Below are positions 21,468-48,044 of a stretch of DNA of 64,000 nucleotides, piece after piece. Positions within the stretch are counted from its first letter, which is position 1. The number at the start of each line of letters is the position of its first letter. Source of the stretch: Candidatus Latescibacterota bacterium. Its GTDB lineage: Bacteria; Latescibacterota; UBA2968; GCA-2709665. The position numbers and the translations under genes are program-made. The stretch lies in assembly GCA_965203805.1 (NCBI GenBank), contig OZ241917.1:4512001-4576000 (forward strand), given 5' to 3'. The notes below the pieces were generated by a model, which saw only the letters and a list, made by a program, of their open reading frames with translations, was not told where the DNA came from and searched no databases.

Positions 21468-21511
21468 CTGTGGATACTGTTTAATCACGTGCTAATGTAG
21501 GGTAGGACACC

Positions 21512-22117
21512 TTGGGTTTCAGAGGACCGACATCACGCGTTAAGCCGTCAAGTAGACTTCACCGCACCCGTCTTCCGCACTTTGAAGCCGGGGAAGTTCC
21601 CCAACACGTTTGCTTTCGACTGGCGGACAGCTTGCCGCAACATCTGCTCCGACAATGGGAGCGAGACCTCGATAGACTTCAGGGAGCGGAACACCAGAAT
21701 CGTCGAAGGATCGAAGAGGCGCTGGATCAGGGCCATGGCGCCTGCTGGTTGCGCCTGCCTGCCATCGCCGCACTGGTGCGTGATGCCTTTCAGTACTTCG
21801 ATGGCCACCTGTATCATCTGCATGCATGGGTGGTCATGCCCAATCATGTCCACGTGTTGGCGACACCGCTTGGCAACCACTCGTTGTCTGGCATCGTACA
21901 CTCCTGGAAGTCGTACACTGCTAGCCATGCTAACAAGATGCTGAAACGCAAGGGGAAGTTCTGGCATGAGGACTACTTTGACCGGTTCATTCGCGACGAA
22001 GATCACTTCGGCGAAATTGTCAGATATATTCACTGGAACCCGGTGAAGGCAGGGTTGTGCACGGACCCTGAAGATTGGGAATGGAGCGATTTTTGCAATC
22101 GGTGTTCGCGGGATTGA
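21512..22117 (+). CDS. REP-associated tyrosine transposase (RAYT/TnpA-REP, Y1 HUH)
   Basis: LPH, FRLADSLP, MPNHVH (HUH), SWKSYT, W...YFDR.IR, YI..NPVKAGL; flanked by REPs on both sides. Confidence 0.9.
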   Translation: MGFRGPTSRVKPSSRLHRTRLPHFEAGEVPQHVCFRLADSLPQHLLRQWERDLDRLQGAEHQNRRRIEEALDQGHGACWLRLPAIAALVRDAFQYFDGHLYHLHAWVVMPNHVHVLATPLGNHSLSGIVHSWKSYTASHANKMLKRKGKFWHEDYFDRFIRDEDHFGEIVRYIHWNPVKAGLCTDPEDWEWSDFCNRCSRD

Positions 22118-22822
22118 TGGCACCCTGCCTGCGCCGAGTTCTGCTCGGCAGGCAGGTCCTGCCCTCGACGCGTAGCGCCAGGCGCGATCCGTTGGGTGCG
22201 AGGATGCCTTTCCCGGGACCGAGGGCATCCCTGCCCTCGCCGGCAGATGCGCGGTGCCGTGGCGCCGTCATTTCCGATATGGTTTCGGATGAATGGGAAC
22301 GATAAGCCCTTGATGTGGAAATTGGCGGGTTACGCGAAGTTCGAGGGCAGGGATGCCCTCGGTCCGGTATCTGGTAGATCATGAACTGATGTAGGGCAGG
22401 TGTGCCGTCGGTCCGGATACTGGTGGATCATGTATTGATGAAGGGCAGAATTGGCTCGTTGTCAGGGATGGCACATCCGGTGTGGTGCGGGTTTTCACGA
22501 CGTGAAGCAATTCCAGCGGATCTCGTCCCGGGATCGAGGGTTTCCCGGGAGCGAGGGCATCCCTGCCCTCGCCGGCAGATGCGCGGAGCTGTGGCGCCGT
22601 CATTTCCAAAATGGAATTGGACGAATGGGAGCGACAAGCCCTTGATGCGGAGATTGGCGGGTTACGCGAAGTTCGAGGGCAGGGATGCCCTCGGTCCGGT
22701 ATCTGGTAGCGCATGAACTGATGTAGGGCAGGGATGCCCTCGGTCCGGATACTGGAGGATCATGTACTGATGAAGGGCAGAACCGGCTCGGTGTCAGGGA
22801 TGGCACATCCGGGGTGCTGGCG
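22116..22822. repeat. REP/REPIN array downstream of RAYT: two ~140-bp units plus partial arms
   Basis: Units 22221-22360 and 22553-22692; degenerate or partial arms at ~22116-22167, ~22393 and 22724-22741. Confidence 0.9.
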
Positions 22823-22855: not shown

Positions 22856-26428
<3,573 letters not shown>

Positions 26429-27246: not shown

Positions 27247-27582
27247 ATGACAGTCGCCTTCAAAACCCGAAAGCTCGAAAAGACCTTAAACTCCGGGAGC
27301 CTCCTTGAGAGGACGTACGGAAAGAGCAGGGCTCGGGCAATCATGATGCGGCTCGCCGTTCTTGCGAACGCGCCGACACTCGCCGCCGTTCCTCACACAC
27401 CCCCCGAACGACGACATCAGCTTACAGGTGATCGTGAAGGGCTGTACGCGGTAAATCTCGATGATCGCGCGCGGCTGATTCTTGCGCCGAATCACGACCC
27501 TGTACCCGTCCTGGACGACGGCGGAATCGACATCCAACGCGTCACGGCAATTACGATCATGGAGGTCACAGACTATCACTAA
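27247..27582 (+). CDS. higB: HigB/RelE-like toxin (plasmid maintenance killer type)
   Basis: F.T.KL.K, P..R.H.L.GDR.G..AV.L, C-terminal I.EV.DYH; toxin-first order. Confidence 0.85.
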   Translation: MTVAFKTRKLEKTLNSGSLLERTYGKSRARAIMMRLAVLANAPTLAAVPHTPPERRHQLTGDREGLYAVNLDDRARLILAPNHDPVPVLDDGGIDIQRVTAITIMEVTDYH

Positions 27583-27595
27583 AGGAGACCGAGTG

Positions 27596-28678
27596 ATGGC
27601 GACGAACCAGTACCGCCCCGACTACGCGGTTCCCCCTGGCTGGGTTCTCGCAGAGCGTCTCGAAGCCCAGGGCATTTCACATGCCGAGTTTGCAAGACGA
27701 TGCGACCGCTCGGGAAAGCTCATCAGCGAGATCGTTTCCGGAAAAGCCCCCATCGAGGCAAAGACTGCGCTTCAATTCGAGAGAGTACTTGGGGTCGATG
27801 CGGATATCTGGTTGGGAATTGAGAAGGACTATCAGTTGCACCAGATCAGGGAGTCTGAGGCCAGGCAAGCAGAAGCGTTAGCGGAGTGGGCGAAGACTTT
27901 CCCGCTCGGCGAATTGGCCAAACGAGGGGCGATTCGTACGCGCTCGGCCAGCAGAGAAGCGTATTCGGAACTGATGGCATTCTTTCGTGTGGCGTCGATC
28001 GACGCGTGGCATGTCAGATACGGGAAGGCGAACATCGCATACCGGCACTCGCCGAGTTTCAAAAGCGACGAAAACTCGCTCGCGACCTGGCTTCGACTCG
28101 CGGAGATCGACGCTGAAGCACAGAAGTGTAACGAATACGACAGGTCGGCCTTTATGGGTGCGTTGCGCCGGATCCGCAGGCTGACTCGCGCGCCATTCGA
28201 TGAGGCTCGTGATCAGACCCACGAGCTTTGCAACCACGCAGGCGTTGCGCTTGCGATGATCGAACCGCTACCAAAAGCCAGCCTTAGTGGCGCTGCGTGG
28301 TGGTTATCCCCCCGCAAACCCGTCATCGCCCTTAGCGCGCGCCACAGGACCGACGACCACCTCTGGTTCAGTCTGTTTCACGAGGCTGCACACATCCTTA
28401 TTCACAGCAAGAGAGACGTTTTCGTCGACGAAGCCAAACCCGGCGGGGCCGACCTCGAAACAGAGGCGAATGAATGGGCCTCGCACTTCCTTGTTTCGCA
28501 GTCGAACTGGCAGCAATTCGTAGATGAAGGGAGATTTACCAGTTTGGAGATTCGCGATTTTGCCGAAGAACAGGGAATCGCGCCGGGTATTGTTGTTGGA
28601 AGACTTCAACATGAAAGGCACATCGGGTGGGATCGTCTTAACGATCTCAAAGTGCGTTTGGAGTGGGTTGAGAATTGA
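27596..28678 (+). CDS. higA: HigA antitoxin fused to ImmA/IrrE-like metallopeptidase
   Basis: PPG..L...L HTH N-terminus; WFSLFHEAAH (HExxH); AAGGAG RBS. Confidence 0.85.
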   Translation: MATNQYRPDYAVPPGWVLAERLEAQGISHAEFARRCDRSGKLISEIVSGKAPIEAKTALQFERVLGVDADIWLGIEKDYQLHQIRESEARQAEALAEWAKTFPLGELAKRGAIRTRSASREAYSELMAFFRVASIDAWHVRYGKANIAYRHSPSFKSDENSLATWLRLAEIDAEAQKCNEYDRSAFMGALRRIRRLTRAPFDEARDQTHELCNHAGVALAMIEPLPKASLSGAAWWLSPRKPVIALSARHRTDDHLWFSLFHEAAHILIHSKRDVFVDEAKPGGADLETEANEWASHFLVSQSNWQQFVDEGRFTSLEIRDFAEEQGIAPGIVVGRLQHERHIGWDRLNDLKVRLEWVEN

Positions 28679-29909: not shown

Positions 29910-30860
29910 TTGGCGATGGCACATGAGGCACCTGGAAAGCATTATCGAGAGGGCTTGTCGTTGGTGAAACTGTTTGACATGTTTCCTGATGATGCATCTG
30001 CAGAAGCATTTTTCATGCAGGCAAGATGGCCTGATGGTCCTGTCTGTCCGCACTGCAATTCTGACAATATTCAGGTTGGCATTGCTCACAAAACCATGCC
30101 TATGCGGTGTAGGAGGAACGGTTGTCGGAAGCGTTTTAGTGTGAGAGTTGGTACGGCAATGGAGTCTTCAAAACTGGGATATAGGGTCTGGATTATAGCT
30201 ATTTATCTGATGACAACCAGTTTGAAGGGCGTGTCTTCTATGAAACTTCACAGAGACTTGGAAGTAGCTCAGAAGAGTGCCTGGCACCTGGCTCATAGAA
30301 TCAGGAAGGGTCTTGTTTCTGGTAGTGAGTTTTTCTCTGGACCGGTAGAGGTTGATGAAACGTACGTCGGGGGCAAAGAGTCGAACAAGCATGCCAGTGA
30401 GAAGTTGAGAGCAGGACGTGGGACTGTGGGGAAGGCCCCAGTCGTTGGAGCTAAGGATAGGGAGACAGGTCGTGTGAAAGCAGAGGTGTCTGAGAATGTT
30501 ACTGGTGAGAATATGAGAGACTTTATTCGCCGCAGTGTTCGGCAGGGTGCAGAGGTTTTTACTGACGAGTCTACTGTTTATAGAGGACTGTCAGGGGTAC
30601 ATCATAAGCAGGTAAAGCACAGTGCTGGTGAGTATGTAAATGACCTTTGCAGTACAAACGGCTTGGAAAGCTTTTGGTCTATGCTGAAGCGTGGTTATAA
30701 TGGTACGTATCACAAGATGTCTGTAAAGCATCTTGCAAGGTATGTAAATGAGTTTGCAGGTAGACACAACATCCGCGAGTTCGACACGCTGGCGCAGATG
30801 GAAAAGGTTGCTCAGGCTATGGTCGGCAAGCGACTCAAATACAAGGAACTGACAGCATGA
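29910..30860 (+). CDS. IS1595 (ISXO2-like) DDE transposase
   Basis: RWPDGPVCPHC zinc ribbon; VEVDETYVGG, TDE, NGLESFWS, Y.NEF..R.N. Confidence 0.93.
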   Translation: MAMAHEAPGKHYREGLSLVKLFDMFPDDASAEAFFMQARWPDGPVCPHCNSDNIQVGIAHKTMPMRCRRNGCRKRFSVRVGTAMESSKLGYRVWIIAIYLMTTSLKGVSSMKLHRDLEVAQKSAWHLAHRIRKGLVSGSEFFSGPVEVDETYVGGKESNKHASEKLRAGRGTVGKAPVVGAKDRETGRVKAEVSENVTGENMRDFIRRSVRQGAEVFTDESTVYRGLSGVHHKQVKHSAGEYVNDLCSTNGLESFWSMLKRGYNGTYHKMSVKHLARYVNEFAGRHNIREFDTLAQMEKVAQAMVGKRLKYKELTA

Positions 30861-33010: not shown

Positions 33011-34543
33011 ATGGCCGACCCAACAGCACACGACTCGCTTGAACTCGAAGTGAACGATTTTGGACCGATAGTCAAGGCTAAAGTCGATTTACGTCCGCTG
33101 ACGGTATTCGTCGGCCCTAGCAATACTGGGAAATCGTATCTGGCGACATTAATCTATGCGCTGCATATGTATTTTACGGGTAGATCGATCACTTCTCGGT
33201 TCTTCTTGACCTATGAGAGGCTTCTTAATCTTGGTCCAACTTTTGTGGACAGGGAAACTCTCAACGCGCTTAACGAGTTTCTGATGGAAGTGACAAACTG
33301 GACGGGAGATATGTGGAGTAAAAAGGAAGTGGTTTTACCCATCCCAATTGTCAAGGCCATTTGTTCAATGTTTGAGTTACAGAACGATCAACTCCACAGT
33401 GAAATCGAGAGGTGCTTTGGCATCGACAGTGCCAGCGCACTCATCCGGAAAGGCAACAGGCGATGCGCGCGGATTGTATTGCGGAAATCTATTTCAGGGG
33501 AATCGGCATCGTTTGAACACGAACTGACACTGAAGTCGAACGCACCTGAATTCGTGACGGCGATGCGCAATGTGGAACAACTGAGGATTAAACTCGACGA
33601 CAGGAAAGAGTTCGTTGAGTACTACGACCGACTGAAGAGTACGTTTTTAATACCTGATAAAATGAGCCAGGATTCGTATCGACAAGCGCTGGGGCCAATC
33701 AACCATTTGCTTGGACTCGCGCTACCTTACCTATTGGGTTCGCTTTATCGCGCAGCATACTATCTCCCCGCCGATCGAACCGGCGTGATGAATAGCCATC
33801 AGGTCGTGGTGAGCGCGTTGATACAGAACGCTACAACTGCCGGGCTACGTCCCGATGAAGAAATTCCAATGCTGTCGGGTGTTTTGGGTGATTTTCTGCA
33901 AAACTTGCTCGTCTTGCCCAGCGCGGCAAATCGTCAACGCACGCCCAAGAAACATCTGGGTGCGCGAATTGAAGATCTGATTCTCGGCGGATCGATTCAA
34001 GTCGAGAGGTCGGAGTTGATCAGCTACCCGCACTTCACCTATACACCCGAGGGATGGAAACATCCGATGCCTTTGATGAATGCCTCTTCAATGGTATCGG
34101 AAATCGCGCCGGTCGTGATGTTTCTTCGCCATCTGGTTAACCCCGGCACTATGCTCGTAATCGAAGAACCCGAATCACACATGCATCCGGCGATGCAGGT
34201 GGAATTCACTCGTCAAATCGCCACGCTGGTTAGGGCGGGCGTCAGGGTAATCGTCACCACGCACAGCGAGTGGGTTCTGGAGGAACTCGCGAACATCGTG
34301 CGACGCTCCGAACTTCCCAAGTCTCGTCGAAAGGAGATGCGCCACGGCGAATTTGCCCTTCGTCCCGATCAGGTGGGGGCATGGCTGTTCAAGCCGAAGC
34401 GCCGACCAAAGGGATCGGTCGTCGAAGAAATTCGATTCGACCCCGATGCAGGTGGGCTTGAAAGCGATTTCAACGAAGTTGGCCGACAATTATACAATGA
34501 TTGGGCGACGATCGGTAACCGTATTGCAGGAAACACCGAATAA
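33011..34543 (+). CDS. ABC-type (AAA_15/21) ATPase
   Basis: FGPI, GPSNTGKS, PADR, IEEPESHMHP, TTHS. Confidence 0.88.
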   Translation: MADPTAHDSLELEVNDFGPIVKAKVDLRPLTVFVGPSNTGKSYLATLIYALHMYFTGRSITSRFFLTYERLLNLGPTFVDRETLNALNEFLMEVTNWTGDMWSKKEVVLPIPIVKAICSMFELQNDQLHSEIERCFGIDSASALIRKGNRRCARIVLRKSISGESASFEHELTLKSNAPEFVTAMRNVEQLRIKLDDRKEFVEYYDRLKSTFLIPDKMSQDSYRQALGPINHLLGLALPYLLGSLYRAAYYLPADRTGVMNSHQVVVSALIQNATTAGLRPDEEIPMLSGVLGDFLQNLLVLPSAANRQRTPKKHLGARIEDLILGGSIQVERSELISYPHFTYTPEGWKHPMPLMNASSMVSEIAPVVMFLRHLVNPGTMLVIEEPESHMHPAMQVEFTRQIATLVRAGVRVIVTTHSEWVLEELANIVRRSELPKSRRKEMRHGEFALRPDQVGAWLFKPKRRPKGSVVEEIRFDPDAGGLESDFNEVGRQLYNDWATIGNRIAGNTE

Positions 34544-35010
34544 TGTGTCGCGTGGTCGACCGGTTGAAAGACGGACTTCCTGAAGGGGCCATCGTTAAGA
34601 GATGCTCGGCCGAGGGGTGCGCTGTTCCGTTGAAAGATGCCCCTGCGCCGCATCTGATTATGGATCTGGATCACCCTTTTTTCCGGCTGAAGGACAAGAT
34701 CCATTGCGATTTTCTGTTTATCAGTTGTGACTGCAATGTTGGATACAACTGGGTTGTTCCTCTGGAACTGAAAGGTGGCAGTCCTGATGCAACAGAAATG
34801 GTATCGCAGCTAATGGCAGGGTCAAATTTCGCGCAAGCCTGGATACCGGAAGATCACAAGATCCAGTTCCGCCCCGTGGGCGTCTTTGGTGGCCGCTTGC
34901 ATAAATTCCAAAGAGACAAGCTTAGAAGGGCTCGCATTTTGTATCGAAGGAAACGGTACGAAGTCAAACTCATACGATGTGGGACGCCGTTAGTTGTTGC
35001 TCTTGCGTAA
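34543..35010 (+). CDS. Hypothetical partner protein, PD-(D/E)XK-like
   Basis: TAATG coupling to ATPase; CDFLF...ELK...QL pattern. Confidence 0.6.
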   Translation: MCRVVDRLKDGLPEGAIVKRCSAEGCAVPLKDAPAPHLIMDLDHPFFRLKDKIHCDFLFISCDCNVGYNWVVPLELKGGSPDATEMVSQLMAGSNFAQAWIPEDHKIQFRPVGVFGGRLHKFQRDKLRRARILYRRKRYEVKLIRCGTPLVVALA

Positions 35011-35021
35011 GAGAAAACCAT

Positions 35022-38000
35022 ATGACTGTTACTAGAAAGAAACTCATCGAAGTCGCCCTGCCGCTTGACGCGATCAACGCTGCGTCGGCTCGAGAAAAGT
35101 CGATCCGCCACGGCCACCCCAGCACCCTGCACCTCTGGTGGGCGCGACGGCCATTGGCGGCGGCGCGCGCTGTAATCTTCGCGCAGATAGTGGACGATCC
35201 GTCGGCCTGTCCGGAGGAGTTTCCAACTGAAGCGGACCAGGAAAAGGAGCGGCAGCGCCTGTTCCGGCTCATCGGGGAACTGGTAAAGTGGGAAAACACC
35301 ACCAACGAGGCCGTGTTGGAACGGGCACGTAAGGAAATCCGAAGGAGTTGGCGGAGGACGTGCGCAGACAATCGGGACCATCCACGCGCCGATGAGTTGT
35401 TCGACCCGGACAAGCTACCGGCCTTCCACGATCCTTTCGCCGGCGGCGGCGCGTTGCCGCTGGAAGCCCAGCGCCTTGGCCTGGAAGCCCACGCCAGCGA
35501 CCTCAATCCGGTGGCTGTGCTTATCAACAAAGCAATGATCGAAATTCCGCCGAAATTTGCGGGCAGACCGCCGGTCAACCCGGAGGCACGGGAGAAGTAT
35601 CTCGGCGCAGGGACATCCCATTCGACGAAACCCTTGCTGGGAGCGCGGGCGCCTGCCTGTGCGTTGCACGCAGACAGGTCCCGCCCGCATAGGGTCTGGC
35701 ACAGCCGCGGATATCTTCCTCATTTGGATCAATCCGAAATCATACAATGCATCACATTTCGCTTGGCGGATTCAATTCCAGCCAATGTTATTGCCGCCTG
35801 GAAGAGCGAATTGGCGCTTTCGGGTGAGGAACCAGCGAGCGATCCGCGTTGTGTGGAATTACGAAAAAAGATCGAACGATACGCCGGTCAGGGACACGGC
35901 GCTTGCTGGCTACAGGACGAGCGGATAGCAGATCAAGTCGAAAGGGCGCTATTGCACTTCGACGGCGTACGGTATCGCTTACTATCGTGGGCCATTATGC
36001 CCAATCACGTGCACGCATTGATCGAAACGACGGCCGGCTTTCCACTTGAAGGCGTCATTCATTCGTGGAAGTCTTACACAGCCAAGCAAATTAACAAGAT
36101 TCTCGGACGGCGCGGCCAGGTCTGGGAAGAGGATTACTTCGATCGTTATATCCGCGATCAGAAACATCTCGCTAACGAAATAGACTATATTGAGCAGAAC
36201 CCCGTGAAAGCCGGGCTTGTTGACAAGGCAACTGAATGGCCGTGGAGCAGTGCTGCAAGGAATGCGGAAGGAGCGAAATTTACGGGAGTTACAGAGGAAC
36301 ATGCGGACGGGACGGTGCTTGACGGAGTAAGAAAAAAGCATGCGGACGGGACGTCCGCGCTCCCAGGATTATGGACCGGTGCGAAGGGACTTGCGGAGGA
36401 CGTCCGTTACTACGGTCAGTGGATGCGCGACGAAGCCGAGAAACGTATAGGGCATCTTTATCCGAAGGTCGAAGTAACTCCTGAAATGGCGCAGGAACGT
36501 CCAGACCTTAAACAATACGAGGGCCGAAAGTTGACGGTGATTGCGTGGCTGTGGGCGCGTACGGTCAAGAGTCCGAATCCGGCATTTGCGGATGTCAATG
36601 TACCGCTCGTATCGACGTTCAGGCTATCGACAAAGAAAGGAAAAGAGGCATACGTCGAGCCGGAGATAGAGGGGCGCAGTTATCGGTTTGCGGTTCGGGT
36701 TGGGAGTCCAACGGACCCTGAGGCGGCCAAGCGGGGCACGACAGCGGGTAAACGTCAGGCATTTCGTTGCCTGATGTCTGGTGTGCCGGTACCGTACGAC
36801 CACGTTCGAAACGAGGGTAAGGCCGGACGAATGGACGCGCGATTGATGGCTGTTGTAGCCGAGGGTGATAGGGGAAGAGTATATCTGTCGCCGACAAGAG
36901 AACATGAATCAATCGCGAGAAAAGCAAACCCCGAATGGAAGCCTGAGTTGGCTCTTCCCAACAACCCGCGGGACTTCAAAACCCCGAATTACGGTCTTCC
37001 CACTTTCGCAGACCTATTCACCGACCGCCAACTCGTTGCGTTGATCACCTTTTCCGATCTCGTAGGGGAGGCATTGAAGCGAGTCAAGCGCGATTACCTT
37101 GCCGCGCGGGTCCCCGACAGACATCTGGTCGGGACACCAAAGTCACCGGATAATAACGCGCGCCTGCGTGAGGGAGGTAACGGCGCGTCAGCGTACGCGC
37201 AGGCAGTTGGTACGTATCTCAGTCTTGGGGTAAGCAAATTGTCCGACGCTCAATCATCGCTATGCCGATGGAAAGCCACAATGAATCAGTCGATTGCTAC
37301 GTTTGGACGACAGGCATTGCCCATGGTCTGGGACTACTCTGAGGCGAATGTGTTTGCTGGAATGGCCGGCGATCCTCTCGTGTCGATCAATAACATGATG
37401 CGCGTGGTTGACGAATTGCCGACTTCGATAGGTGGGCGGGCAAATCAGGGACCCGCACAATCTCTGGTACGTGATGATTCTCCCGTCGTCTCTACTGACC
37501 CCCCGTACTACGATAATGTCGGTTATGCCGATTTATCGGACTACTTTTACGTCTGGTTACGGCATTCGATTAGATCGAAATATCCAGAATTGTTCGCCAC
37601 ACTTGCGGTTCCTAAGACTGAAGAACTGGTCGCAACACCTTATCGTCACGGAAGCAAAGAAAAGGCGGAGACGTTTTTTCTGGACGGCATGGTTCAGGCT
37701 ATGAAATGCCTCGCTGAACAGTCGCATCCAGGCTTCCCGGTTTCGATTTACTACGCCTTCAAGCAGTCCGAAACAAAAGGTGAATTTGGTACATCCAGCA
37801 CCGGCTGGGAGACATTTTTGGATGCGGTAATCCGAGCCGGATTCACCGTCACAGGCACTTGGCCGATACGGACCGAGTTAAGCAATCGTATGATCGGATC
37901 AGGAAAAAACGCTCTCGCTTCCAGCATTGTCCTCGTCTGTCGCAAGCGTTTGGCTGGGGCTCCACTGGCAACCCGTCGAGAATTCGCAGCCGCATTGCGG

Positions 38001-38684
38001 GAAGAGCTTCCCGGTGCTATTGCGCAATTGCAAAGCGGTAACATTGCGCCAGTAGACCTTGCCCAGTCGGCAATTGGACCTGGGATGGCAGTGTATACTC
38101 GGTACTCCAAAGTGCTTGACGCGCAGGGCAACCGCGTATCGGTGGGCGATGCTCTTGCGCTGATCAATCAGACTCTGGACGAAGTACTCGCCGAACAGGA
38201 AGGAGAATTTGACTCTGACACCCGTTGGGCACTCGCCTGGTTCGAGCAGAACGGGTTCGATGAGGGGGAGTTTGGCGTGGCAGAGACCCTGTCCAAAGCA
38301 AAAAACACTAGCATCGACGGCATCGTTGAAGGAGGAATTCTCGCCTCACGCGCGGGCAGGGTTCGACTGTTGCGCCCAAACGAGTTGGCACGTGATTGGG
38401 AGCCAACCACGGACAAACGTCTCACTGTGTGGGAAGCAGTCCAATATCTGGTCCACGCCCTCGAATCCAGCGGCGAATTCGCCGCTGCTAAGCTGGTTCA
38501 TCAACTCGGCGGTCTCGCCGAAACCGCGCGCGAATTGGCTTATCGACTATATACGATATGTGAGCGCAAGAATCGCGCCGATGAAGCCCGATCCTACAAT
38601 GGCCTCGTGCAGAGTTGGCCGGAAATCGCTAGATTGGCGCGGGAACGGGCACCGGCGGAGCAAAGCGAGTTGTTTGGGGATTGA
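35022..38684 (+). CDS. DUF1156 adenine DNA methyltransferase carrying an in-frame RAYT insert
   Basis: KKLIEVALPL, LHLWWARRPL, DPFAGGG (motif I), TDPPYYDN (motif IV). Confidence 0.9.
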   Translation: MTVTRKKLIEVALPLDAINAASAREKSIRHGHPSTLHLWWARRPLAAARAVIFAQIVDDPSACPEEFPTEADQEKERQRLFRLIGELVKWENTTNEAVLERARKEIRRSWRRTCADNRDHPRADELFDPDKLPAFHDPFAGGGALPLEAQRLGLEAHASDLNPVAVLINKAMIEIPPKFAGRPPVNPEAREKYLGAGTSHSTKPLLGARAPACALHADRSRPHRVWHSRGYLPHLDQSEIIQCITFRLADSIPANVIAAWKSELALSGEEPASDPRCVELRKKIERYAGQGHGACWLQDERIADQVERALLHFDGVRYRLLSWAIMPNHVHALIETTAGFPLEGVIHSWKSYTAKQINKILGRRGQVWEEDYFDRYIRDQKHLANEIDYIEQNPVKAGLVDKATEWPWSSAARNAEGAKFTGVTEEHADGTVLDGVRKKHADGTSALPGLWTGAKGLAEDVRYYGQWMRDEAEKRIGHLYPKVEVTPEMAQERPDLKQYEGRKLTVIAWLWARTVKSPNPAFADVNVPLVSTFRLSTKKGKEAYVEPEIEGRSYRFAVRVGSPTDPEAAKRGTTAGKRQAFRCLMSGVPVPYDHVRNEGKAGRMDARLMAVVAEGDRGRVYLSPTREHESIARKANPEWKPELALPNNPRDFKTPNYGLPTFADLFTDRQLVALITFSDLVGEALKRVKRDYLAARVPDRHLVGTPKSPDNNARLREGGNGASAYAQAVGTYLSLGVSKLSDAQSSLCRWKATMNQSIATFGRQALPMVWDYSEANVFAGMAGDPLVSINNMMRVVDELPTSIGGRANQGPAQSLVRDDSPVVSTDPPYYDNVGYADLSDYFYVWLRHSIRSKYPELFATLAVPKTEELVATPYRHGSKEKAETFFLDGMVQAMKCLAEQSHPGFPVSIYYAFKQSETKGEFGTSSTGWETFLDAVIRAGFTVTGTWPIRTELSNRMIGSGKNALASSIVLVCRKRLAGAPLATRREFAAALREELPGAIAQLQSGNIAPVDLAQSAIGPGMAVYTRYSKVLDAQGNRVSVGDALALINQTLDEVLAEQEGEFDSDTRWALAWFEQNGFDEGEFGVAETLSKAKNTSIDGIVEGGILASRAGRVRLLRPNELARDWEPTTDKRLTVWEAVQYLVHALESSGEFAAAKLVHQLGGLAETARELAYRLYTICERKNRADEARSYNGLVQSWPEIARLARERAPAEQSELFGD
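35637..36366 (+). mobile_element. REP-flanked RAYT module embedded in frame in the methylase
   Basis: Inverted ends CTGGGAGCGCGG / CCGCGCTCCCAG; RGYLPH, TFRLADS, MPNHVH, SWKSYT, YFDRYIR, YI..NPVKAGL. Confidence 0.88.
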
Positions 38685-38838: not shown

Positions 38839-41485
38839 ATGAGCATTTTGCAAAGTCTACGCCGGATTCGTCGGACCGGCCAGCGTGTGAGGAGAGAGGC
38901 TCGAAATTGGGGCCGTGAGTCCATAGGGTTCATCAATCTCAATTGGCGCCATCTTGTGATTTCTGTCACGTTGATGGCTATTTTGTGGATCGGCACCTCG
39001 AGGCTTATAGATATCTGGAACTGGCTAGCCACCGACTTCTGGACTTGGCTGCGAATGGGCTCGAATGGGACCGAAACCCACAGCACGACCCTTCGCAATG
39101 TCGGTTTGCTCTTTGGCGGGGTATTGGCCTTACTGGTTGCGTTGTGGCGCAGTTGGGTAGCAGAGCGGCAAGCCAGAATTGCACAGCGAAATCTATTGAA
39201 CGAACGCTATCGACAAGGTGCCGAAATGCTTGACAGCAAAGTCTTGGCAGTTCGCTTGGGTGGGATCTACGCACTACAGCGTCTCGCAGCGGACAATCCG
39301 AAGAAATATCACATACAAATCATGCAGCTATTGTGTGCATTTGTACGTCATCCACCTGCCGTCGACGGCGAGAAGAATGAACCGTTTGCAGGCAACCAAA
39401 CCGATCTCGAATTGCGCAATGACGTGCAAGATGCCATAAACTCAATCAGCACATGCCATGCGCGACAGACCAAACTGGAGGTTGCAGCGGGCTTTCGACT
39501 AGTGGTCCATTTCGGAAGTATGTATCAGGTTAGGCAGCGATCTTGAGTTCGCGGAGCCTTTCTTCAAGGTCGCATTTGGTGAATCGCCATTTGAAGGGTC
39601 TCGAAGTTTGGTTATAGCGACGCTGAAATCCGAGGATGCGGTCTTCCATTTGCTTTCTGGTTGCGAGGTCGTTGGGCGTGAGCGCCTTTCTTTGAAGGAT
39701 GGAGAAGTAGATCTCGATCTGGTTGAGCCCTGCCTGCGGCAGGCAGGCAGCTTGCGTGGACGGGAAGATGGATGGCGATCAGGTTCGGGTAGGCGTTTTT
39801 GAGTCGTGCAGGGGAGGTCGACGGGTGATGGGAAGGCCCATTGTCGAGGATCCAGAACACGCGTTGTGCCGAAGCATAGGGTTCCTGCTTCATCACGAGG
39901 TCGACCAGCCTCTGAAAGGGTTCGATACCCGTGGTTTGATCCACACGACCAAAGACCCTTCCGCTCCTGATATCGAGTGCGGCCAGGTAGGCCACGGTCC
40001 CGTGGCGCTTGTAGTCGGACTCACAGTGAATCGGTTTTCCCGGTCCCGGAGGTGAAGAAGGGAACTCCCGCTCCAGGATCTGGAGCTGCGATTTCTCGTC
40101 CGCACTGAGAACGTAGTCTTTGGGCCCCAGGGGCGCGCCCTCATAATCCCCTTGATACAGATCCAAAACAGGGCCCGCTTTTTCCAGAAAGCGTGGATCT
40201 TTGATCGAGATCCACGATCGGTGAAACCAGGGACGAATGGCGTCCCGTTTGAGGAGACGCCACAGCGTGCTTTTAGAGATCGACAGGCTTGTCTCGGAAC
40301 GGATTTCCTGAAGCAGTTCCGCGAGGCTGAAGCGGGATAGCGGGATCTCCCGCACGGCTGGCAATTGGCAGGCGATGGCCTTAATTTCAGCGACGCGTTC
40401 GGGGGGGAAAAACCGGAGGCCTTCCACTACGAGGCCGATCCAGCAGTGAAAAACCCTCTGTAGCCCAGCGCTTTCGCCATTTCATCACCGTTCTGGGGTG
40501 CACGCCAACTGCTTGCGCAAGACGCTCGTGCGAGATATCCGGATGCTCCCACAAAACCAAGACCATCTTGGCCCTGTAAACAAGGGCGCTGGGGGCCGTT
40601 CGTTGTCGGGCTATCCTACCCGCTTCCGCGATATCCTGTGTCTCAAACTGCGGTTGATACTTCGGCTTCGGTCCAGGCATCGGTTACCTCCCAACACGGG
40701 CGGGGAGACAACCCTATTATAAGAACGCTACCGGCTACAGACAACATTATACCAATTTCTGAAATCGACCACTAGATCTGCGTGGCGTGAATCTGCGCGG
40801 TGCGGTTTTGCTCAAAGCACGGCTCAGCAAAGCGAATCTATCCAAAGCTGACCTAACCGGGGCGGCGCTAAGCGATGCCGATTTGGCTGGTGCAATCTTT
40901 GGCCACGCGATTTTAAACGATGCACGGCTTAACGGTGCAGACTTAAGCGGTAGCAAATTCAACAATGCACAAATGTGCAGAACCCAACTCCCCGGTGCGA
41001 ACCTGGCTAAATCGGACCTCTCGAACGCAGAACTCGAAGGTGCCCGAGTGTCCGAAGCGAAATTGTCAAAGGCAAACCTCTACAGAGCGAACCTAACCGG
41101 TGCATTCCTCCAGAACTCCGATTTGTCGGAGGCAAGGCTTCAATGCGCGAATTTGACCGCCGCATGGCTATATAATGCTAAGTTGGCAGGGGTGAATCTT
41201 TCAAACGCAATATTAAGCGAAGCGGACTTTAGTGGGTCAGATCTTTTGAATGCGAACCTCTCCAATGCCAATGTGTCCAACACACGGCTTTTCCCATTGC
41301 GACCTACATCGCCCCGAGTAGGCGAGAGACCGATTCGACGAGAGATCCCGACGAAACTCACTCAGGCTCAGCTTGATGTCGCCTGCGCAGAACCTGAGAA
41401 ACCACCAAAGCTGGGTGATGCCGTGGATGCGGAAACTGGCAATCCACTGGTCTGGCGTGGCAAGTCTCTGAACAGGCAAAGGTAG
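38839..41485 (+). pseudogene. Membrane-anchored pentapeptide-repeat protein split by IS630
   Basis: N-part RY..G.EML...VRLGGIYAL.RLA; C-part A(D/N)Lxx repeats; removing the IS restores GFRLDLRGVNL. Confidence 0.88.
39502..40772 (-). mobile_element. IS630-family element (orfA 40387-40680, orfB ending at 39530); transposase disrupted by 19-bp palindrome
   Basis: Imperfect TIRs GTGGTC.ATTTC.GAA; TA (CTAG) at both ends; HTH orfA; DEK, DNG, (W)LNQIE DDE motifs; TTTTTCCCCCCC slippery junction. Confidence 0.9.
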
Positions 41486-41761
41486 ACGTATGAAAGTGCG
41501 CGATCTTTATTGTAGCCTGCGTCTGAGCTTGCAGTGACCCATAATTAAAATAAGTATCTCGTATCAAATGAATGTTTGGATGTCTGGGGATGGCGCGTCT
41601 GGCGACGTTCTCTACATTCTGCACCGAGCCGGTCGCCGCAACGTGTGCTGCACGAACAGTTCGGGTTGTTCGGTGAAGGAACCGACAAGCAATTGAGAAA
41701 AAGACGTAGTCGCTATCGAATTTCGTGCGGCAAATCTACGGGTGAGAAGGGAGAAAAAATC

Positions 41762-44593
41762 GTGACGTCAGATCGAACAAGGAGTTGGCGTTACCCGGGC
41801 GCTCGTTGGTGGAAATTCGACTTCCACACCCACACCCCCGAGTCGAAGGACTATGGTCAAGGACCCAACCAAACAGCCCTAAGGCAGATTAAACCGAAAG
41901 AATGGTTGTTAGCCGTTATGCGTGTTGGCGTAGATTGTGTGGCGATAACGGATCACAACTCGGGCGATTGGACTGACAGGCTTAAAGAGGCACTCCAGGA
42001 ACTAGAGTGTGAATCTCATCCGGATTTTAGACCGCTTTACCTGTTTCCTGGTGTTGAAATTACCGCCAACGGTGGAACCCATATATTGGCGATACTGGAT
42101 ACAAGCAAGTCGTCTGCCGATGTGGCGACGCTTCTTGGCGCAGTTGAGTACCACGGTGAACGCGGCGCTTGTGAAGTCACTGCAAACAAATCGCCAATTG
42201 GCGTCGTCGAAGCTATTGTTGACTTTGGTGGTATTCCAATTTTGGCACATGTGGACGAGCCAAGTGGAGCCTGGAAGCTTAAGGGAAACACGCTTAGCCC
42301 GCTGCTCGAATTCGATGGTTTGTTTGCAATGGAAGTTGTCGATCCGAACGCAAAAAAACCCGCAAAGTACCGACAGATGAAGCTAAAATGGGCAGAAGTT
42401 CTTGGATCGGACTCACACGACCACACCGGTAAGACTGGATCCCGTGTTCTTGGTTCCGACTACACATGGGTAAAGATGGCGGAACCGTCTCTCGAGGGAC
42501 TGCGCCTGGCATTGCTGGACGGCGGTGGGTTTTCAATTCGGCGTAGTGATGATTTGAGTCCTTTCGATCCTTTTAGATTGCCCGATCACTTCGTCGAGGC
42601 TTTGGAAATTGAAGATGCGCAATATATGGGACGAGGCGAATCGGCAAAACTCAGCTTTAGTCCGTGGTTAAACGCTATGGTAGGTGGACGAGGGACGGGA
42701 AAATCAACAGTAATTCATGGAATAAGGCTTGCTTCAAGACGAGAGCAGGAGTTGTCGAAATTTGAAGAAAACTGCGAGCCCCGCTTGATCTTCGAGCAAT
42801 TTAACCGGGTGCCTGGGGACCGCACGGACCGTGGCGGCTTGACAGATTCGACGGAAATCAGGTGGACCGTAATGCGAAACGAAGTTCGGTATCGCGTGCG
42901 TTGGCGGCGCGACGGCTGCGGGACAGTGGTAGAGGAGAACGCAGGCGAAAACTGGGTTCCGTCAAGCATTCAAAGTGTTACGCCCGAGCGCTTTCCAATC
43001 CGGATTTTTAGCCAGGGACAGATTGCGGCGTTGGCCGGCGAGAACCAACAGGCATTGTTGCAGGTGATTGACGATGCCGCTGGAGTGGTTAGGCTACAAA
43101 GGCAACTCAATGATGCTATAAGCGAATTCTATGCGGCGCGGACGCGGATTCGCGAGATGGATGGAAAATTAGTTCGTTGGGACGATCTAAAAGTTGATAT
43201 GCAGGATGTGGAGAGGAAACTGGCTCGTTTTGAGGAAGCCCGCCATGGGGAAGTTCTGACGAGCTACCAACGCCGAAGCCGACAGAAAAGGGAAATGGAA
43301 CGTCAGTTCGAAGCCGCCGATGGCACCGTACGGGTTATTGAAGATACAATTGCTGTGCTGCAATCCGAGGATGTTCCAGACAGGTTGTTCGACACGGATT
43401 CCGACGAAGACCGCGAAGCCATCGCCACCATCGATGCACTGGCTTCCGCAGTCCGCACGGCAGGCGAAACCCTTAAAGGAGCCGCGGAGAGTCTCCGAGT
43501 CGTCATCAACACACAACGGGACGAATTGTCAAAAAGCAAATGGCAGAGGGCTGTAAATCAAATCGTGTCTGAATACAAGCAACTGGTCGAAACACTTCAA
43601 TCGGAGGGTGTCTCCGATCCGAGCGAATACGGCCGACTCGTGCAGGAAAGGCAGCGACTCGATAGCGAAATCGAACTTCTGGAGTCGTTAAGTAAAGAAC
43701 GGGACGAGCTGAATGAGCGATCCCGAACGTTGCTCGGGCACGTACAAGAAGCTCGGCGCGCTGTGAGTGCTGCACGAGAGGACTTCCTTGAAGATGCACT
43801 GGCGCAGAACAACTTTGTAAGAATCCGAAACCTTTCATACGGCGATGACCCCCGTGTTATCGAGGGTGGGTTGCGCGAGGCATTAGGCGTTCTCGACGAT
43901 CGATTTCAGCTTGACATTTTGGATATGGATGACGAGTCGCGGGTGAAAGGAATCGTTGCAGAACTGCTGAATGACTTGCCGGACGAGTCTGCCCAACGCC
44001 GTTCTGAACTGGAACGCCGTATTGACAATCTAAAAGACCGCTTTGACTCTGCTTGTAAGGGTCGCGGAGACTTTGGAGGTCACTTCAACAACTATCTGGC
44101 GCGTGAATTTAACAATAAGCCGGAATTCCTTGACCGATTGCTTGCCTGGTTCCCGGAGGATTCGTTAAGGGTGGAATACAGCCGTCAAGGAGACGGTAGA
44201 GACTTCAGGCCTATTACGCAGGCTTCGTCCGGACAGCGGTCGGCGGCGATGCTGGCATTCCTACTCGCACACGGCGAGGAACCGCTGGTGCTGGACCAGC
44301 CGGAGGACGATTTGGACAATCACTTGATCTATGACCTGGTAGTACGCCAGATCCGCGAAAACAAACTGAGGAGACAAATCACAGTTGTGACACACAACCC
44401 GAACATTGTGGTAAACGGAGATGCCGAGATGTTGCATGCGCTTGAATTTGTGAGCGGACAGTGCATTGTGCAGCAATCTGGGTCTTTGCAGCAGGAGGCC
44501 ATGAGGGAGGAGGTCTGCCGCGTAATGGAGGGCGGGCGCGAAGCGTTCGAGCGCCGCTATCGCAGACTTGGACCGGAGCCAACCCATGTTTGA
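41762..44593 (+). CDS. PHP phosphoesterase fused to ABC ATPase (TrlF/Ppl-like defence protein)
   Basis: DFHTHTP, ITDHN, GVEI, GSDSH; GGRGTGKS, SSGQ, LDQPEDDLDN, THN. Confidence 0.85.
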   Translation: MTSDRTRSWRYPGARWWKFDFHTHTPESKDYGQGPNQTALRQIKPKEWLLAVMRVGVDCVAITDHNSGDWTDRLKEALQELECESHPDFRPLYLFPGVEITANGGTHILAILDTSKSSADVATLLGAVEYHGERGACEVTANKSPIGVVEAIVDFGGIPILAHVDEPSGAWKLKGNTLSPLLEFDGLFAMEVVDPNAKKPAKYRQMKLKWAEVLGSDSHDHTGKTGSRVLGSDYTWVKMAEPSLEGLRLALLDGGGFSIRRSDDLSPFDPFRLPDHFVEALEIEDAQYMGRGESAKLSFSPWLNAMVGGRGTGKSTVIHGIRLASRREQELSKFEENCEPRLIFEQFNRVPGDRTDRGGLTDSTEIRWTVMRNEVRYRVRWRRDGCGTVVEENAGENWVPSSIQSVTPERFPIRIFSQGQIAALAGENQQALLQVIDDAAGVVRLQRQLNDAISEFYAARTRIREMDGKLVRWDDLKVDMQDVERKLARFEEARHGEVLTSYQRRSRQKREMERQFEAADGTVRVIEDTIAVLQSEDVPDRLFDTDSDEDREAIATIDALASAVRTAGETLKGAAESLRVVINTQRDELSKSKWQRAVNQIVSEYKQLVETLQSEGVSDPSEYGRLVQERQRLDSEIELLESLSKERDELNERSRTLLGHVQEARRAVSAAREDFLEDALAQNNFVRIRNLSYGDDPRVIEGGLREALGVLDDRFQLDILDMDDESRVKGIVAELLNDLPDESAQRRSELERRIDNLKDRFDSACKGRGDFGGHFNNYLAREFNNKPEFLDRLLAWFPEDSLRVEYSRQGDGRDFRPITQASSGQRSAAMLAFLLAHGEEPLVLDQPEDDLDNHLIYDLVVRQIRENKLRRQITVVTHNPNIVVNGDAEMLHALEFVSGQCIVQQSGSLQQEAMREEVCRVMEGGREAFERRYRRLGPEPTHV

Positions 44594-45845
44594 TAGTCAA
44601 AAGGAACTGCTTGACAAGATTCAACTGGGCGAAGACACGTTTCTGGAATGCAAGGAGGTCCGGTTTTCGGGAAAACGTGTTTCCGACCCACATCGCGACT
44701 CTCTCGCCGACTCCCTTGCCGCCTTTGCAAACAGCCAGGGAGGAATCTTGGTGATGGGCGTGGAAGATGAATCACGTGAGATCCTGGGTATTCCCCTTGC
44801 ACGTCTCGATCTGGTGGAGCGATTCGTTCATGAGATTTGCCAGGACTCCGTCGATCCACCCCTTTCGCCGACTATAGAACGGCTAAGGCTGCCAGCGACC
44901 ATCGGAGAGGAGGTAGCGGTCATCAAGATAGATGTGCGCCCCAGTCTGTTTGTGCATCGAAGTCCGGGTGGTTACCTGCATCGAGTCGGAAGCGCCAAAC
45001 GGGTTATGCCCTCTGACTTTCTGGCTCGTCTATTTCAACACCGTAGTCAGATTAGCGTCATTCGCTTTGATGATCAGGCGGTTCCTCAAGCCGAACTGGA
45101 CGACTTGAACGATGATTTGTGGCAGCGGTTTTTAACTTCCCGGTCGCGCAATCAGCGCGACGACTTTCTTTTTAAGCTGGGCATGGCGCGAATGGAATCC
45201 AACGGCTCGATCCGTCCAACGGTAGCGGGCGTCCTGATGGCAGCCCGTGATTCCCGGACTTGGCTGCCTAATGCCTACATTCAGGCTGTCGCCTATCGGG
45301 GCGAGCAAATCCGAGTGGAGCAATCGGGTGACCCGTATCAGATTGATGCTGCCGATATCTACGGTCCGTTGGATACCCAGGTTACCGATGCCTGTCGATT
45401 CGTAATTAAGAATATGAAAACAGCCGCAGATAAGGAACTAGGGAGGCGTGACCGCCCGCAGTTCGACATTACGGCAGTTTTTGAGGCATTGGTCAATGCA
45501 GTCGCCCATCGTGATTACTCCATTCACGGCTCCAAGATCCGACTCAGGATATTTTCCAACCGGCTAGAATTGTATTCACCTGGGGCGCTACCAAATACGT
45601 TGACAGTCGAAAGTCTCCCATACAGACAGTCAGCTCGCAATGACGCGATATGCAGCCTGCTCGCCCGATGTACAGTGCCCGCAGACGTGCCCTGGCTTGT
45701 CACCGACCGTGAAACGCTTATGGACAAGCGGGGCGAAGGCGTGCGCATTATCTATGACAATAGTGAAACGCTTTCGGGACGATTACCTGAATACAGTTTG
45801 ATCGACGATAGTGAGTTGCGGCTCGTAATCTGGGCCGCGAAATAG
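44586..45845 (+). CDS. AlbA_2/Schlafen domain plus HATPase_c_4 (RecG C-terminal-like) protein
   Basis: GED..LECK, AFANS.GG.L..GV.D, EALVNAVAHRDY, SPG.L. Confidence 0.85.
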   Translation: MFDSQKELLDKIQLGEDTFLECKEVRFSGKRVSDPHRDSLADSLAAFANSQGGILVMGVEDESREILGIPLARLDLVERFVHEICQDSVDPPLSPTIERLRLPATIGEEVAVIKIDVRPSLFVHRSPGGYLHRVGSAKRVMPSDFLARLFQHRSQISVIRFDDQAVPQAELDDLNDDLWQRFLTSRSRNQRDDFLFKLGMARMESNGSIRPTVAGVLMAARDSRTWLPNAYIQAVAYRGEQIRVEQSGDPYQIDAADIYGPLDTQVTDACRFVIKNMKTAADKELGRRDRPQFDITAVFEALVNAVAHRDYSIHGSKIRLRIFSNRLELYSPGALPNTLTVESLPYRQSARNDAICSLLARCTVPADVPWLVTDRETLMDKRGEGVRIIYDNSETLSGRLPEYSLIDDSELRLVIWAAK

Positions 45846-46907: not shown

Positions 46908-48044
46908 ATGTCTGAAGAACGCCCGGGCACCTGCCTGCATCTTCCGGATCTGTCGATAACCGGATTTCGGGGAATCGCGTCGCTAACCATTAAGCGGTTG
47001 GGTCGCGTTACGCTGCTTGCGGGAAAGAACAGCGTCGGCAAGACAACCGTTTTGGATGCCGTCCGGGTCTACGCGGCGCGCGGTCGCCCTTTCATTCTGT
47101 CCGACGTGTTGAAGAGCCACGAAGAGGTGGCTGCCGCTACGTATCGCGGTGACAAAGAGGGAATTGACCCTCATCTGGAGGCGCTCTTCCACGGACGGGA
47201 CGCTTCCGGGGAGGCGTCCTTCTCGATCGGCCCGGATAACGGTTGGGACCAGCTTAGAGTTGAAGCGATTCCCCCAGATAAAGCCACTCGTCCTAGTCAT
47301 GGACATCCCCCCGATTTTTTCGTGGCGCCAACAAGATTGCTTAAAATCGTCAGTCAAGACACTGAGCAGATAATTCCCTGGTATTTCTCTCCCTATGCGT
47401 TGAGTACCAAATTGGCCAAAAGTCGCCGTATATATCAGTATCTCTTGAATACGTCTGCAGATTACGACCTACCAGCCGCAATCGACTGCCGGTCCATGGG
47501 TCCGGCCCTGTTGAGCAAGGACGAAGTCGTGGTCTTTTGGGATGACATCGCGCTGACCGACGATGAGGAATGGGTGGTCAATTCCCTGCAGCCTGTTCTC
47601 GGCGACCAGGTACAGCGCATTGGGACAATCGGAGATAACAGTAACGGACGACGGGTGATCGCCAGAGTCCGGGGGCAGTCCTTTCCGGTCCCTCTCGAAA
47701 GCTTTGGTGATGGGGCCCTGCGCCTGTTCGGCACTGCCCTGATGCTGGTCAACAGCCGGGACGGCTTCCTGCTCATCGACGAAGCGGAAAACGGCATTCA
47801 CCATACCGTCCAACGCGATTTCTGGCGCATGGTACTTGAGACCGCGGACCAAAACAACGTGCAGGTTCTCGCGACAACGCACAGCTATGACTGTGTGCGA
47901 GGTTTTGCGCAGGCGGTTAACGAATGCGAGGGAATCGACGGGGGGCTTGTGCGTCTCGAACGTAGCGACAGGGAAATGTGGGCAGTTGAGTATTCGGAAG
48001 ATGATCTCAAGGTCGTTGCTGATCAACACATTGAAGTGAGGTAA
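46908..48044 (+). CDS. ABC-type (AAA_21) ATPase
   Basis: FRGI, GKNSVGKT, FGDG, IDEAENGIH, TTHS; ends EVR. Confidence 0.88.
   Translation: MSEERPGTCLHLPDLSITGFRGIASLTIKRLGRVTLLAGKNSVGKTTVLDAVRVYAARGRPFILSDVLKSHEEVAAATYRGDKEGIDPHLEALFHGRDASGEASFSIGPDNGWDQLRVEAIPPDKATRPSHGHPPDFFVAPTRLLKIVSQDTEQIIPWYFSPYALSTKLAKSRRIYQYLLNTSADYDLPAAIDCRSMGPALLSKDEVVVFWDDIALTDDEEWVVNSLQPVLGDQVQRIGTIGDNSNGRRVIARVRGQSFPVPLESFGDGALRLFGTALMLVNSRDGFLLIDEAENGIHHTVQRDFWRMVLETADQNNVQVLATTHSYDCVRGFAQAVNECEGIDGGLVRLERSDREMWAVEYSEDDLKVVADQHIEVR

Follow-up and report, generated by a model that had tools for sequence, protein, structure and literature searches.

The gene at the center of this study lies in a 64,000-nucleotide (nt) stretch of the genome of a Candidatus Latescibacterota bacterium (assembly GCA_965203805.1, contig OZ241917.1, positions 4,512,001 to 4,576,000 of the forward strand; this whole stretch is called the window, and coordinates are counted from its first nucleotide). 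It encodes a DNA methylase whose reading frame contains a RAYT, a tyrosine transposase of the kind associated with repetitive extragenic palindromes (REPs). An open frame on the plus strand (34977-38684; 1235 amino acids, aa) contains the methylase together with the insert, and the likely start of the methylase is the ATG at 35022, because relatives begin at MTxxRKKLIE. From its profile matches we assign the gene (35022-38684, +) to HmaB, the DUF1156-type N6-adenine DNA methylase of an Hma (DUF499-type, BREX-related, type 1) defense system. The PADLOC profile of HmaB scores 1506.5 bits in a match that the insert divides into two stretches, the best of them placing residues 464-1232 on profile positions 210-965, and Pfam DUF1156 (PF06634) recognizes the N-terminal domain with 111 bits. 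The methylase motifs read DPFAGGG for motif I (35430-35450) and DPPY for motif IV (37497-37508); the columns of motif I (FxGxG) and motif IV are invariant in 44 aligned methylases, insert-bearing and insert-free alike. The two partners of HmaB are encoded on the same strand: HmaA, by Pfam an SNF2 helicase that also has a DUF3883 (NOV_C) domain (22856-26428; PADLOC HmaA, 1654 bits), at a distance of 8.6 kb, and HmaC, a DUF499 AAA+ ATPase (53475-56798; PADLOC HmaC, 1123.9 bits), at a distance of 14.8 kb, with other defense genes and transposases in between.

The whole in-frame insert spans 35598-36368 (+) and amounts to 257 residues (208-464 of the 1235-aa frame), placed between motif I and motif IV at a position that we call site A. 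Its junctions were read codon by codon against relatives: the insert begins with KYLG and finishes with ALPG, followed by L, and the frame is free of stop codons and frameshifts. The catalytic core of the RAYT (35697-36257, +; WHSRGYLPH...WPWSSAA) contains the HUH motif MPNHVH at 35997-36014, with the HUH histidines in PNHVH (36000-36014), and the motif YIEQNP at 36186-36203, whose tyrosine Y404 (36186-36188) we take to be the catalytic one from its role in the family. The insert alone scores 90.7 bits with the NCBIfam model REP_Tyr_transpos (NF047646, cut-off 80) and 30.7 bits with Pfam Y1_Tnp (PF01797, cut-off 23). An assignment to the IS200 equivalog TnpA was ruled out, with NF033573 giving 21.9 bits against a cut-off of 55. 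A phmmer search with the insert finds TnpA_REP of E. coli (PDB code 4er8_A, E 4.1e-9), in an alignment that pairs PNHVH and YIEQNP of the insert with PEHMH and YIYINP of 4er8_A. The free-standing RAYT at 21512-22117 of the window is 44% identical to the insert over 205 columns (E 4e-58). The preliminary description of this DNA had proposed a complete RAYT in frame inside a DUF1156 methylase, with intact HUH and tyrosine motifs and with homology to the RAYT at 21512, and all of this is borne out.

Structure prediction, which that description had named as a check, gives the same picture. The AlphaFold model of the insert alone has a mean pLDDT of 79.3, with 85-97 over insert residues 41-225 and less than 50 in both linkers. 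In a Foldseek search the model retrieves 4er8_A at rank 1 (E 1.8e-8, target-normalized TM 0.62), followed at ranks 2-29 by IS200, IS608 and ISDra2 transposases and related folds. The RAYT is thus predicted to fold as a separate domain within HmaB, with the translated, G+C-rich ends of the element modeled as disordered linkers. The AlphaFold2 model of the full-length protein (1200 residues, 46 sequences) is poor (mean pLDDT 51.9, pTM 0.27), such that the placement of the loop cannot be derived from it; in this model as well the RAYT stretch is predicted better than the rest, and the linkers score below 50.

Reading of the frame disclosed no evident start and no stop codon of its own for the RAYT, and no methionine from the left end to the HUH motif. 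Inteins follow a rule for the residues at their splice junctions. These residues do not occur at the junctions of the insert, and no Hint family was detected in the insert-bearing protein in Pfam at E up to 0.01. In agreement with the preliminary description, which had seen no splice motifs, an intein identity is rejected; the insert therefore probably stays in the mature protein.

The assembly of the insert region is sound. Contigs of three sequencing runs (X1-X3) reach across both junctions and match the window without any difference over 35117-38174 or beyond; all three runs come from one study, which is possibly the source of the window. A fourth run from another study (X4, labeled as a sponge metagenome) provides a 1829-nt contig that covers 35175-36689 with approximately 93% identity and carries the same insert at the same place, without only a 27-nt and a 39-nt extra that are present in the window insert.

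Hairpin ends and two occupied loops

The insert is bounded by inverted ends that are translated as linkers, as had been claimed from the outset. A 15-nt terminal inverted repeat (35637-35651 versus 36352-36366) is complementary at 14 of 15 positions (93%), and each end folds into a DNA hairpin (z between -2.3 and -2.9). The left repeat and its hairpin, GCGGGCG...CGCCCGC (35637-35688, +), fold with -20.6 kcal/mol (z -2.3) and are translated as LGARAPACALHADRSRP. The right end (36342-36366, +) comprises the hairpin GCGGACG GGA CGTCCGC and the inverted-repeat tail GCTCCCAG, translated as ADGTSALP. The exact 12-mer of the ends occurs twice in the window, once at each end of the insert; with up to one mismatch there are three matches against 0.67 expected, a count reached in 4 of 100 shuffles. 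The linker peptides of relatives, LGARASRP on the left and AGGTPALP on the right, are the two strands of one sequence, reverse complements in the DNA, and some inserts read the end sequences in other frames. Relative to the stem type of G139 and L001 (GCGGGCG...CGCCCGC), the right stem in the window differs by two paired changes. Left and right ends co-vary within one element in both G139 and L001 (Gemmatimonadales), and the latter preserves the end hairpins as DNA in another phylum.

In the window itself the ends are partly decayed. An outer copy of the left end (35598-35624, +), decayed and translated as YLGAGTSHS, aligns with the YLGARASRPH-type left end of relatives. Within the loop of the left hairpin is nested a 27-nt palindrome (35651-35677) that extends the stem; it is missing from G055, G057, G040 and the X4 contig, and may represent a tiny mobile or recombining hairpin. 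The peptide that it encodes, PACALHADR, recurs in two proteins of another insert clade (P0007 and P0023). On the other side, a 39-nt inner partial duplicate of the right end, HADGTVLDGVRKK (36300-36338, +), a direct repeat of CATGCGGACGGGACG, precedes the right end; it is skipped in the X4 contig and missing from G057.

Homologues of the methylase supply both empty-site alleles and recurrent RAYT insertion at the same loop, the two patterns that the preliminary description had pointed to. A sample of 121 proteins (the query and the best 120 of 8000 scored candidates from a whole-protein search), which is enriched for insert-bearing proteins since the query itself carried the insert, has a RAYT at site A only in 44 members, at a second position, site B, only in 43, at both in 3 and at neither in 31. 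Site B lies about 250 core residues downstream of site A. The loop at site A measures 24-30 residues in empty alleles and 194-279 in occupied ones. One more site-A insert, that of P0037, is not a RAYT; together with L030, L034 and L042 this protein has a different in-frame insert of about 105-150 residues at site A, which is low-complexity, has no match to the window insert and is sequence-related between loci. As these non-RAYT inserts occupy the same loop, site A seems, from the sequences compared, to act as a hot spot for translated insertions in general.

At site B (37089-37160, +) the window protein has no RAYT but a surplus of 11 residues, RDYLAARVPDRHLVGTPKSPDNNA, that resembles the decayed footprint of a hairpin element of the same kind. 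Empty alleles have 20 residues here (RDAxxAGLPDD), and less decayed 31-residue alleles read RDYLGSRASRP..DAL.. or RDILGTRASGPLAGGTPAPP. The surplus is found in 16 carriers of a site-A insert, the window protein included, and in 9 RAYT-free proteins; it looks like one or two hairpins without a transposase, and it was inspected at the DNA level in three genes. In two further proteins (P0049 and P0068), a RAYT-less hairpin doublet at site A goes together with a site-B RAYT that has the same end type.

Carriers extend well beyond the genus of the window. A RAYT lies inside a methylase frame in 9 of the 168 genomes of its phylum (G000, G055, G057 twice, G040 at both sites, G139, G135, G117, G138 and G039), and the genus includes empty site-A alleles (G050, G051, G052 and G058). 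The names given for carriers by their sources include Defluviicoccus, Nitrosomonadales, Myxococcota, Blastocatellales, Methylococcaceae, Kapaibacterium, Binatia, Planctomycetes, Chloroflexales and Anaerolineae. Two side observations belong here. A more distant methylase (L122, G039:C53; a 1350-aa frame with motif I and DPPY) has a RAYT at residue ~500 with other terminal repeats; and several loci (L015, L058, L070, L048 and L021) show tblastn matches beyond the size of the gene, up to 5.4 kb, or a site B that is 50-80 residues larger.

Free relatives and unrelated hosts

The free-standing RAYT paralogue of the window (21512-22117, +; NF047646, 104 bits) has its own stop codon. In the insert tree it nests within the site-B insert clade, and it is 78% identical to the site-B insert of P0003. 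Arrays of 190-280-nt repeats flank it on both sides (20629-22819), such that the gene is embedded in five or more copies, each with one hairpin doublet of the type GGAGCGAGGGCATCCCTGCCCTCG. This hairpin has 17-19 copies in the genome, mostly around the free RAYT, with one just downstream of HmaC (~56984), and the same type also ends many site-B inserts (ERGHPAL...EGETPSLPG). Elsewhere in the genome (G000:C1, ~4168190-4168240), an intergenic stretch holds a hairpin of the free-RAYT type beside one of the site-A type.

Relatives of the insert are also read through in proteins other than DUF1156 methylases. A search with the insert that admitted only longer proteins gave 644 matches (E up to 0.001), which are 449-2000 aa long. 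The best 120 of these consist of 92 with PF06634, 17 other proteins and 11 that are mostly truncated DUF1156 proteins. The 17 are seven PF01555 (N6_N4) methylases, four PF02384/MmeI-type methylases, two MttB proteins, two class II aldolases, one MiaB-like radical-SAM protein and one DUF3883 helicase, the flanks of which resemble HmaA. In these long hosts the RAYT is placed internally, N-terminally or C-terminally, and in the other hosts it is bordered by linker peptides that derive from hairpins or look like repeats and do not in every case belong to the window's type. A library of representatives at 50% identity contains 17,886 homologues (E up to 0.001), with 20 of the best 150 being at least 450 aa long; a Pfam scan of 10 of those 20 gave two DUF1156 and two MmeI-type proteins, PriA, a creatininase, a 4Fe-4S protein, an AAA_21 ATPase and two proteins with no other domain. 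Ordinary free RAYTs therefore make up most of the relatives, with read-through forms as a recurring minority.

Housekeeping proteins are among the hosts of RAYTs of the same clade (P0268, P0202, P0172/P0183, P0146 and P0141/P0142). The RAYT of the PriA host is internal, with the 3'-binding domain on one side and the helicase core on the other; it is C-terminal in a class II fructose-bisphosphate aldolase and N-terminal in MttB, and a creatininase and a MiaB-like enzyme are further examples.

Spread, selection and origin of the insert

Occupancy of the two loops is patchy on the methylase tree. The minimum number of occupancy changes on the methylase-core tree is at least 24 for site A and at least 20 for site B. 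The insert tree groups mostly by site and requires three changes of site label, with one site-B clade nested within the site-A clade that includes the window insert. Recent changes can be seen in pairs of close relatives. P0006 (1219 aa) has the insert and P0054 (978 aa) lacks it, and their cores are nearly identical throughout; the two differ in the loop itself and by a few substitutions within ~100 residues downstream, and by this comparison the pair represents a recent gain or loss of the insert. In 36 pairs among nine proteins of one insert clade the inserts are 93-99% identical and the cores 71-84%.

The DNA resolves two such cases. G057 has two HmaB paralogues 5.7 kb apart (L112/L113, G057:C2, ~163400-172700), both insert-bearing. 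Across the insert and ~100 nt on either side of it, the DNA of the two copies agrees at 98-100%. Further upstream the identity is 86-93%, and downstream it is mostly 44-81%, apart from a second tract of 96-99% near the 3' end (nt ~3100-3370). The synonymous divergence (dS) of the RAYT is 0.008 between these paralogues, compared with 0.5 and 1.0 for the two parts of the core. Between G055 and G057 the DNA of the RAYT core is 96-100% identical with dS 0.10, and the surrounding gene has dS 0.9-1.5. In these two relatives the RAYT has thus diverged at synonymous positions 10 to 100 times less than the gene around it. An identity scan beside the insert at the protein level was uninformative, as the N-terminal 270 residues are more than 90% conserved in all alleles. 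From the borders of the identical tracts, the recent events resolved in DNA look like gene conversion or allelic recombination rather than clean transposition.

The embedded RAYT is under purifying selection, the outcome of a dN/dS check that the preliminary description had put forward. In comparisons of G000 with G055, with both G057 copies and with G040, dN/dS is 0.06-0.08 for the RAYT, 0.06-0.10 for the N-terminal part of the methylase and 0.08-0.09 for its C-terminal part, at dS values of 1.1-1.5 that, being above 1, are near saturation. A check for the HUH and tyrosine patterns in 95 rows, made up of 94 inserts plus the free RAYT, found both of them in 90. The five misses are two pattern misses (P0062 and P0080), the non-RAYT insert of P0037, a site-B insert that lost HUH (P0004) and a site-B insert that lost the tyrosine (P0098). 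With these two genuine losses, HUH and tyrosine are both kept in 91 of 93 RAYT inserts.

These results make it hardly credible that the insert is a neutral relic, a one-off insertion that happens to stay open, or the product of a chimeric assembly. The partly decayed ends in the window would suit a relic. Against it stand the 90 other distinct proteins with a RAYT at one or both sites and the purifying selection on the insert, and both the relic and the artefact are at odds with the independent contigs, one of them from another study, that carry the insert. A one-off insertion or a chimera is thus contradicted by recurrence, selection and contig evidence. The two outcomes that the preliminary description had seen as most damaging, a chimera and an insert always decayed within a dead methylase, are contradicted in turn by the contigs that span the junctions and by the kept RAYT motifs together with the invariant methylase motifs.

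We favor, and consider probable, an origin as a selfish element of the RAYT kind: as a translated insert it would persist in permissive loops and be expressed there, and it would spread by recombination and occasional transposition. We favor it because two loops are recurrently occupied with a patchy distribution on the methylase tree, because inserts are younger than their hosts, because the hairpin ends are conserved as DNA and leave RAYT-less footprints, and because the same clade resides in unrelated proteins. The RAYT would act as a Y1 HUH single-strand-DNA transposase lying between two inverted hairpins, and as a never-spliced passenger in a surface loop of HmaB it would be produced only as a domain of the host protein. 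Single-strand transposition that depends on the hairpins may have brought it to the loops in the first place. Since breaking the methylase of a restriction-like system would presumably be lethal, survival would be limited to copies that are in frame, free of stops and placed in permissive loops. Later spread among methylase alleles and paralogues would run mostly by homologous recombination through the highly conserved flanks; occasional true transposition is invoked to account for the use of two sites, for the several end types, for the free copies and for the unrelated hosts.

A number of observations weigh against this selfish origin. The trees were built with FastTree only, and the methylase-core tree without the loop columns. 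The identical tract between G055 and G057 stops inside the element, and that between the G057 paralogues overruns the element borders; with borders so much like those of recombination, these events therefore do not demonstrate movement catalyzed by the RAYT. Between occupied and empty alleles the loop is replaced, not cleanly interrupted, and a comparison of the two revealed no shared target motif beyond a tyrosine codon before the left end at both sites. The preliminary description had called the ends REP-type, and their architecture of inverted hairpins agrees with this, but their copy number does not: the 25-nt end is no multi-copy REP or REPIN family, having 1-3 copies in the 5.87-Mb genome at up to four mismatches. 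No excision product, circle junction or empty-site variant appeared in the contigs of X1-X4, in which rare variants would be missed. Among the best 80 of 591 DUF1156 loci from species-representative genomes, a site-A RAYT is present in one (L001, Gemmatimonadales), with one weak, marginal match to the insert in another (L041); a site-A RAYT is therefore a minority state, toward which the protein sample is biased. For the window insert, dS against relatives is 1.1-1.5, similar to the 1.0-1.4 of the flanking N-terminal part of the gene, which is also what one would expect of a fixed, vertically inherited domain. By these values the window copy is old, intact and vertically co-diverging with its gene, without sign of recent movement. 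Lastly, the purifying selection, as strong on the RAYT as on the methylase by these estimates, would fit a co-opted function equally well.

This last point leads to the domesticated fusion, in which Hma would have co-opted the HUH/Tyr nuclease, for instance for nicking single-stranded DNA or hairpins of invaders or for regulating the methylase. The equal dN/dS of RAYT and methylase, the retention of HUH and tyrosine in nearly all inserts, the striking enrichment of DNA methylases and other defense proteins among the hosts, and the co-divergence of insert and gene in this window all agree with it. We nevertheless regard it as unlikely: the insert is patchy on the methylase tree and absent from close alleles, inserts are far younger than their hosts, the inverted hairpins are conserved as DNA for which a protein domain has no need, the same clade occurs in housekeeping enzymes and as free genes, and the site-A insert is in only the one species-representative locus mentioned above. 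The preliminary description had left the choice between an intein-like selfish module and a domesticated fusion; the comparisons favor the selfish module, and domestication retains the support of the equal purifying selection.

A programmed switch, in which excision and re-insertion of the RAYT at its hairpin ends would toggle the specificity or activity of the methylase in the manner of phase variation, is very improbable. The accessible parts of a 2025 preprint (bioRxiv 10.1101/2025.10.09.681413) place the target-recognition insert of such methylases after core strand 2, and site A lies just after that strand; near-identical genes with and without the insert also occur. But no contig skips the insert, the replaced loop and the flanking substitutions are unlike the outcome of reversible excision, and there is no second nearby copy of the ends for exchange. 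The suggestion that excision toggles methylase alleles hence finds no support in the contigs, which cannot show rare variants.

The selfish origin can be extended from this locus to the clade. We put forward, as a tentative proposal somewhat short of an even chance, that this RAYT clade has a lifestyle so far undescribed for bacterial transposons: a stop-free element, transposase and end hairpins together, read through as a domain of its host in the manner of an intein without splicing, favoring restriction-like defense methylases, riding on defense islands and recombination, with an embedded RAYT that is still active as a single-strand-DNA nickase or transposase.

Genomic setting and relation to known systems

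The Hma system of the window is interrupted by nested defense-type genes and transposases (26500-53400). Upstream of HmaB lie a PD-Lambda-2_B-like HTH/M78 protein (27482-28678), an IS1595 transposase (29910-30860), and a PD-T4-4_A-like AAA_15 ATPase (33011-34543) with its small partner (34543-35010). Between HmaB and HmaC follow a DDE transposase remnant on the minus strand (39612-40427), a pentapeptide protein (40787-41485), a Ppl-like ATPase (41576-44593), a Schlafen/AlbA_2 protein (44568-45845), a PDC-M38A/AbiLi-like protein (46908-48044) and a HEC-01-like protein (50457-51632). Downstream of the system come a DrmD-like helicase (57711-60734) and, from 62250 to the end of the window, a TmtA-like frame. 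The three-gene system is named a type-1 DUF499-centered BREX-related system in the accessible text of the same preprint, and HmaA, HmaB and HmaC with identical domain names are listed in what is accessible of a paper on Halomonas (PMC11232893).

RAYTs that are flanked by REPs or by inverted repeats are already known. One close parallel to the insert is the REPtron, a RAYT gene between REP hairpins as in E. coli (TnpA_REP, PDB code 4ER8), with which it shares the enzyme family, the HUH and tyrosine motifs and the inverted bounding hairpins. However, the RAYT of the REPtron is stand-alone, whereas the insert is a stop-less internal domain of another protein; its hairpins, unlike the REP hairpins there, are not multi-copy in the genome; and it recurs at fixed sites of one host family with recent spread between alleles. 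According to the part of the work of Bertels et al. that was accessible, RAYTs are typically single-copy and no longer copy themselves.

Intragenic REPs and the Rickettsia palindromic elements (RPE) offer a second parallel: G+C-rich palindromes are translated as an extra peptide in proteins that probably still work, a category that also takes in the 11-residue site-B footprints and the site-A doublets. Open reading frames that contain REPs and REP dimers have been reported (Di Nocera et al. 2013, PMC3733652). Here, in contrast, a whole transposase gene is translated with its hairpins, a form that the accessible text of that paper does not mention.

Inteins with homing endonucleases resemble the insert in being selfish, in frame in an indispensable gene, at conserved sites and patchy in distribution, and also in their spread between alleles with co-conversion of flanks and in encoding a DNA-cleaving enzyme, which for the insert is a prediction. 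The insert differs in having neither a Hint domain nor splice-junction residues, and its nuclease is predicted to be an HUH/Tyr single-strand enzyme that would recognize the hairpins of the element itself and not the empty site. With IS200/IS605 elements and TIRYT it has in common the Y1 HUH transposase, the hairpin or inverted-repeat ends, the low copy number and related folds, but in contrast to IS200/IS605 it has no tnpB and no recognizable target tetranucleotide, and it sits in frame in a host gene.

We found no description of a RAYT, as a whole element, read through in a methylase or other host protein, of its two hot spots in HmaB or of its spread, in a literature search that covered neither subscription papers nor supplements (those of PMC3733652 and PMC6006769 may list fused forms).

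RAYTs are usually regarded as single-copy, stand-alone and possibly domesticated, and inteins are the textbook case of an in-frame selfish element; this locus and its ~90 relatives link the two. Here a DNA transposon appears to survive in coding sequence by being translated, in two recurrent loops of a defense methylase and with signs of recent spread from allele to allele. The locus also singles out two loops of HmaB that tolerate large insertions, a help in engineering and in interpreting the structure of this little-studied system. If the embedded enzyme is active, it would offer a natural case of a large enzyme that tolerates an HUH nickase as one of its internal domains. It would also explain the "unexpectedly long" Y1 proteins that an earlier survey, in its accessible text, discarded as fusions or annotation errors (PMC6006769), and it would represent a new route by which mobile elements and defense islands travel together.

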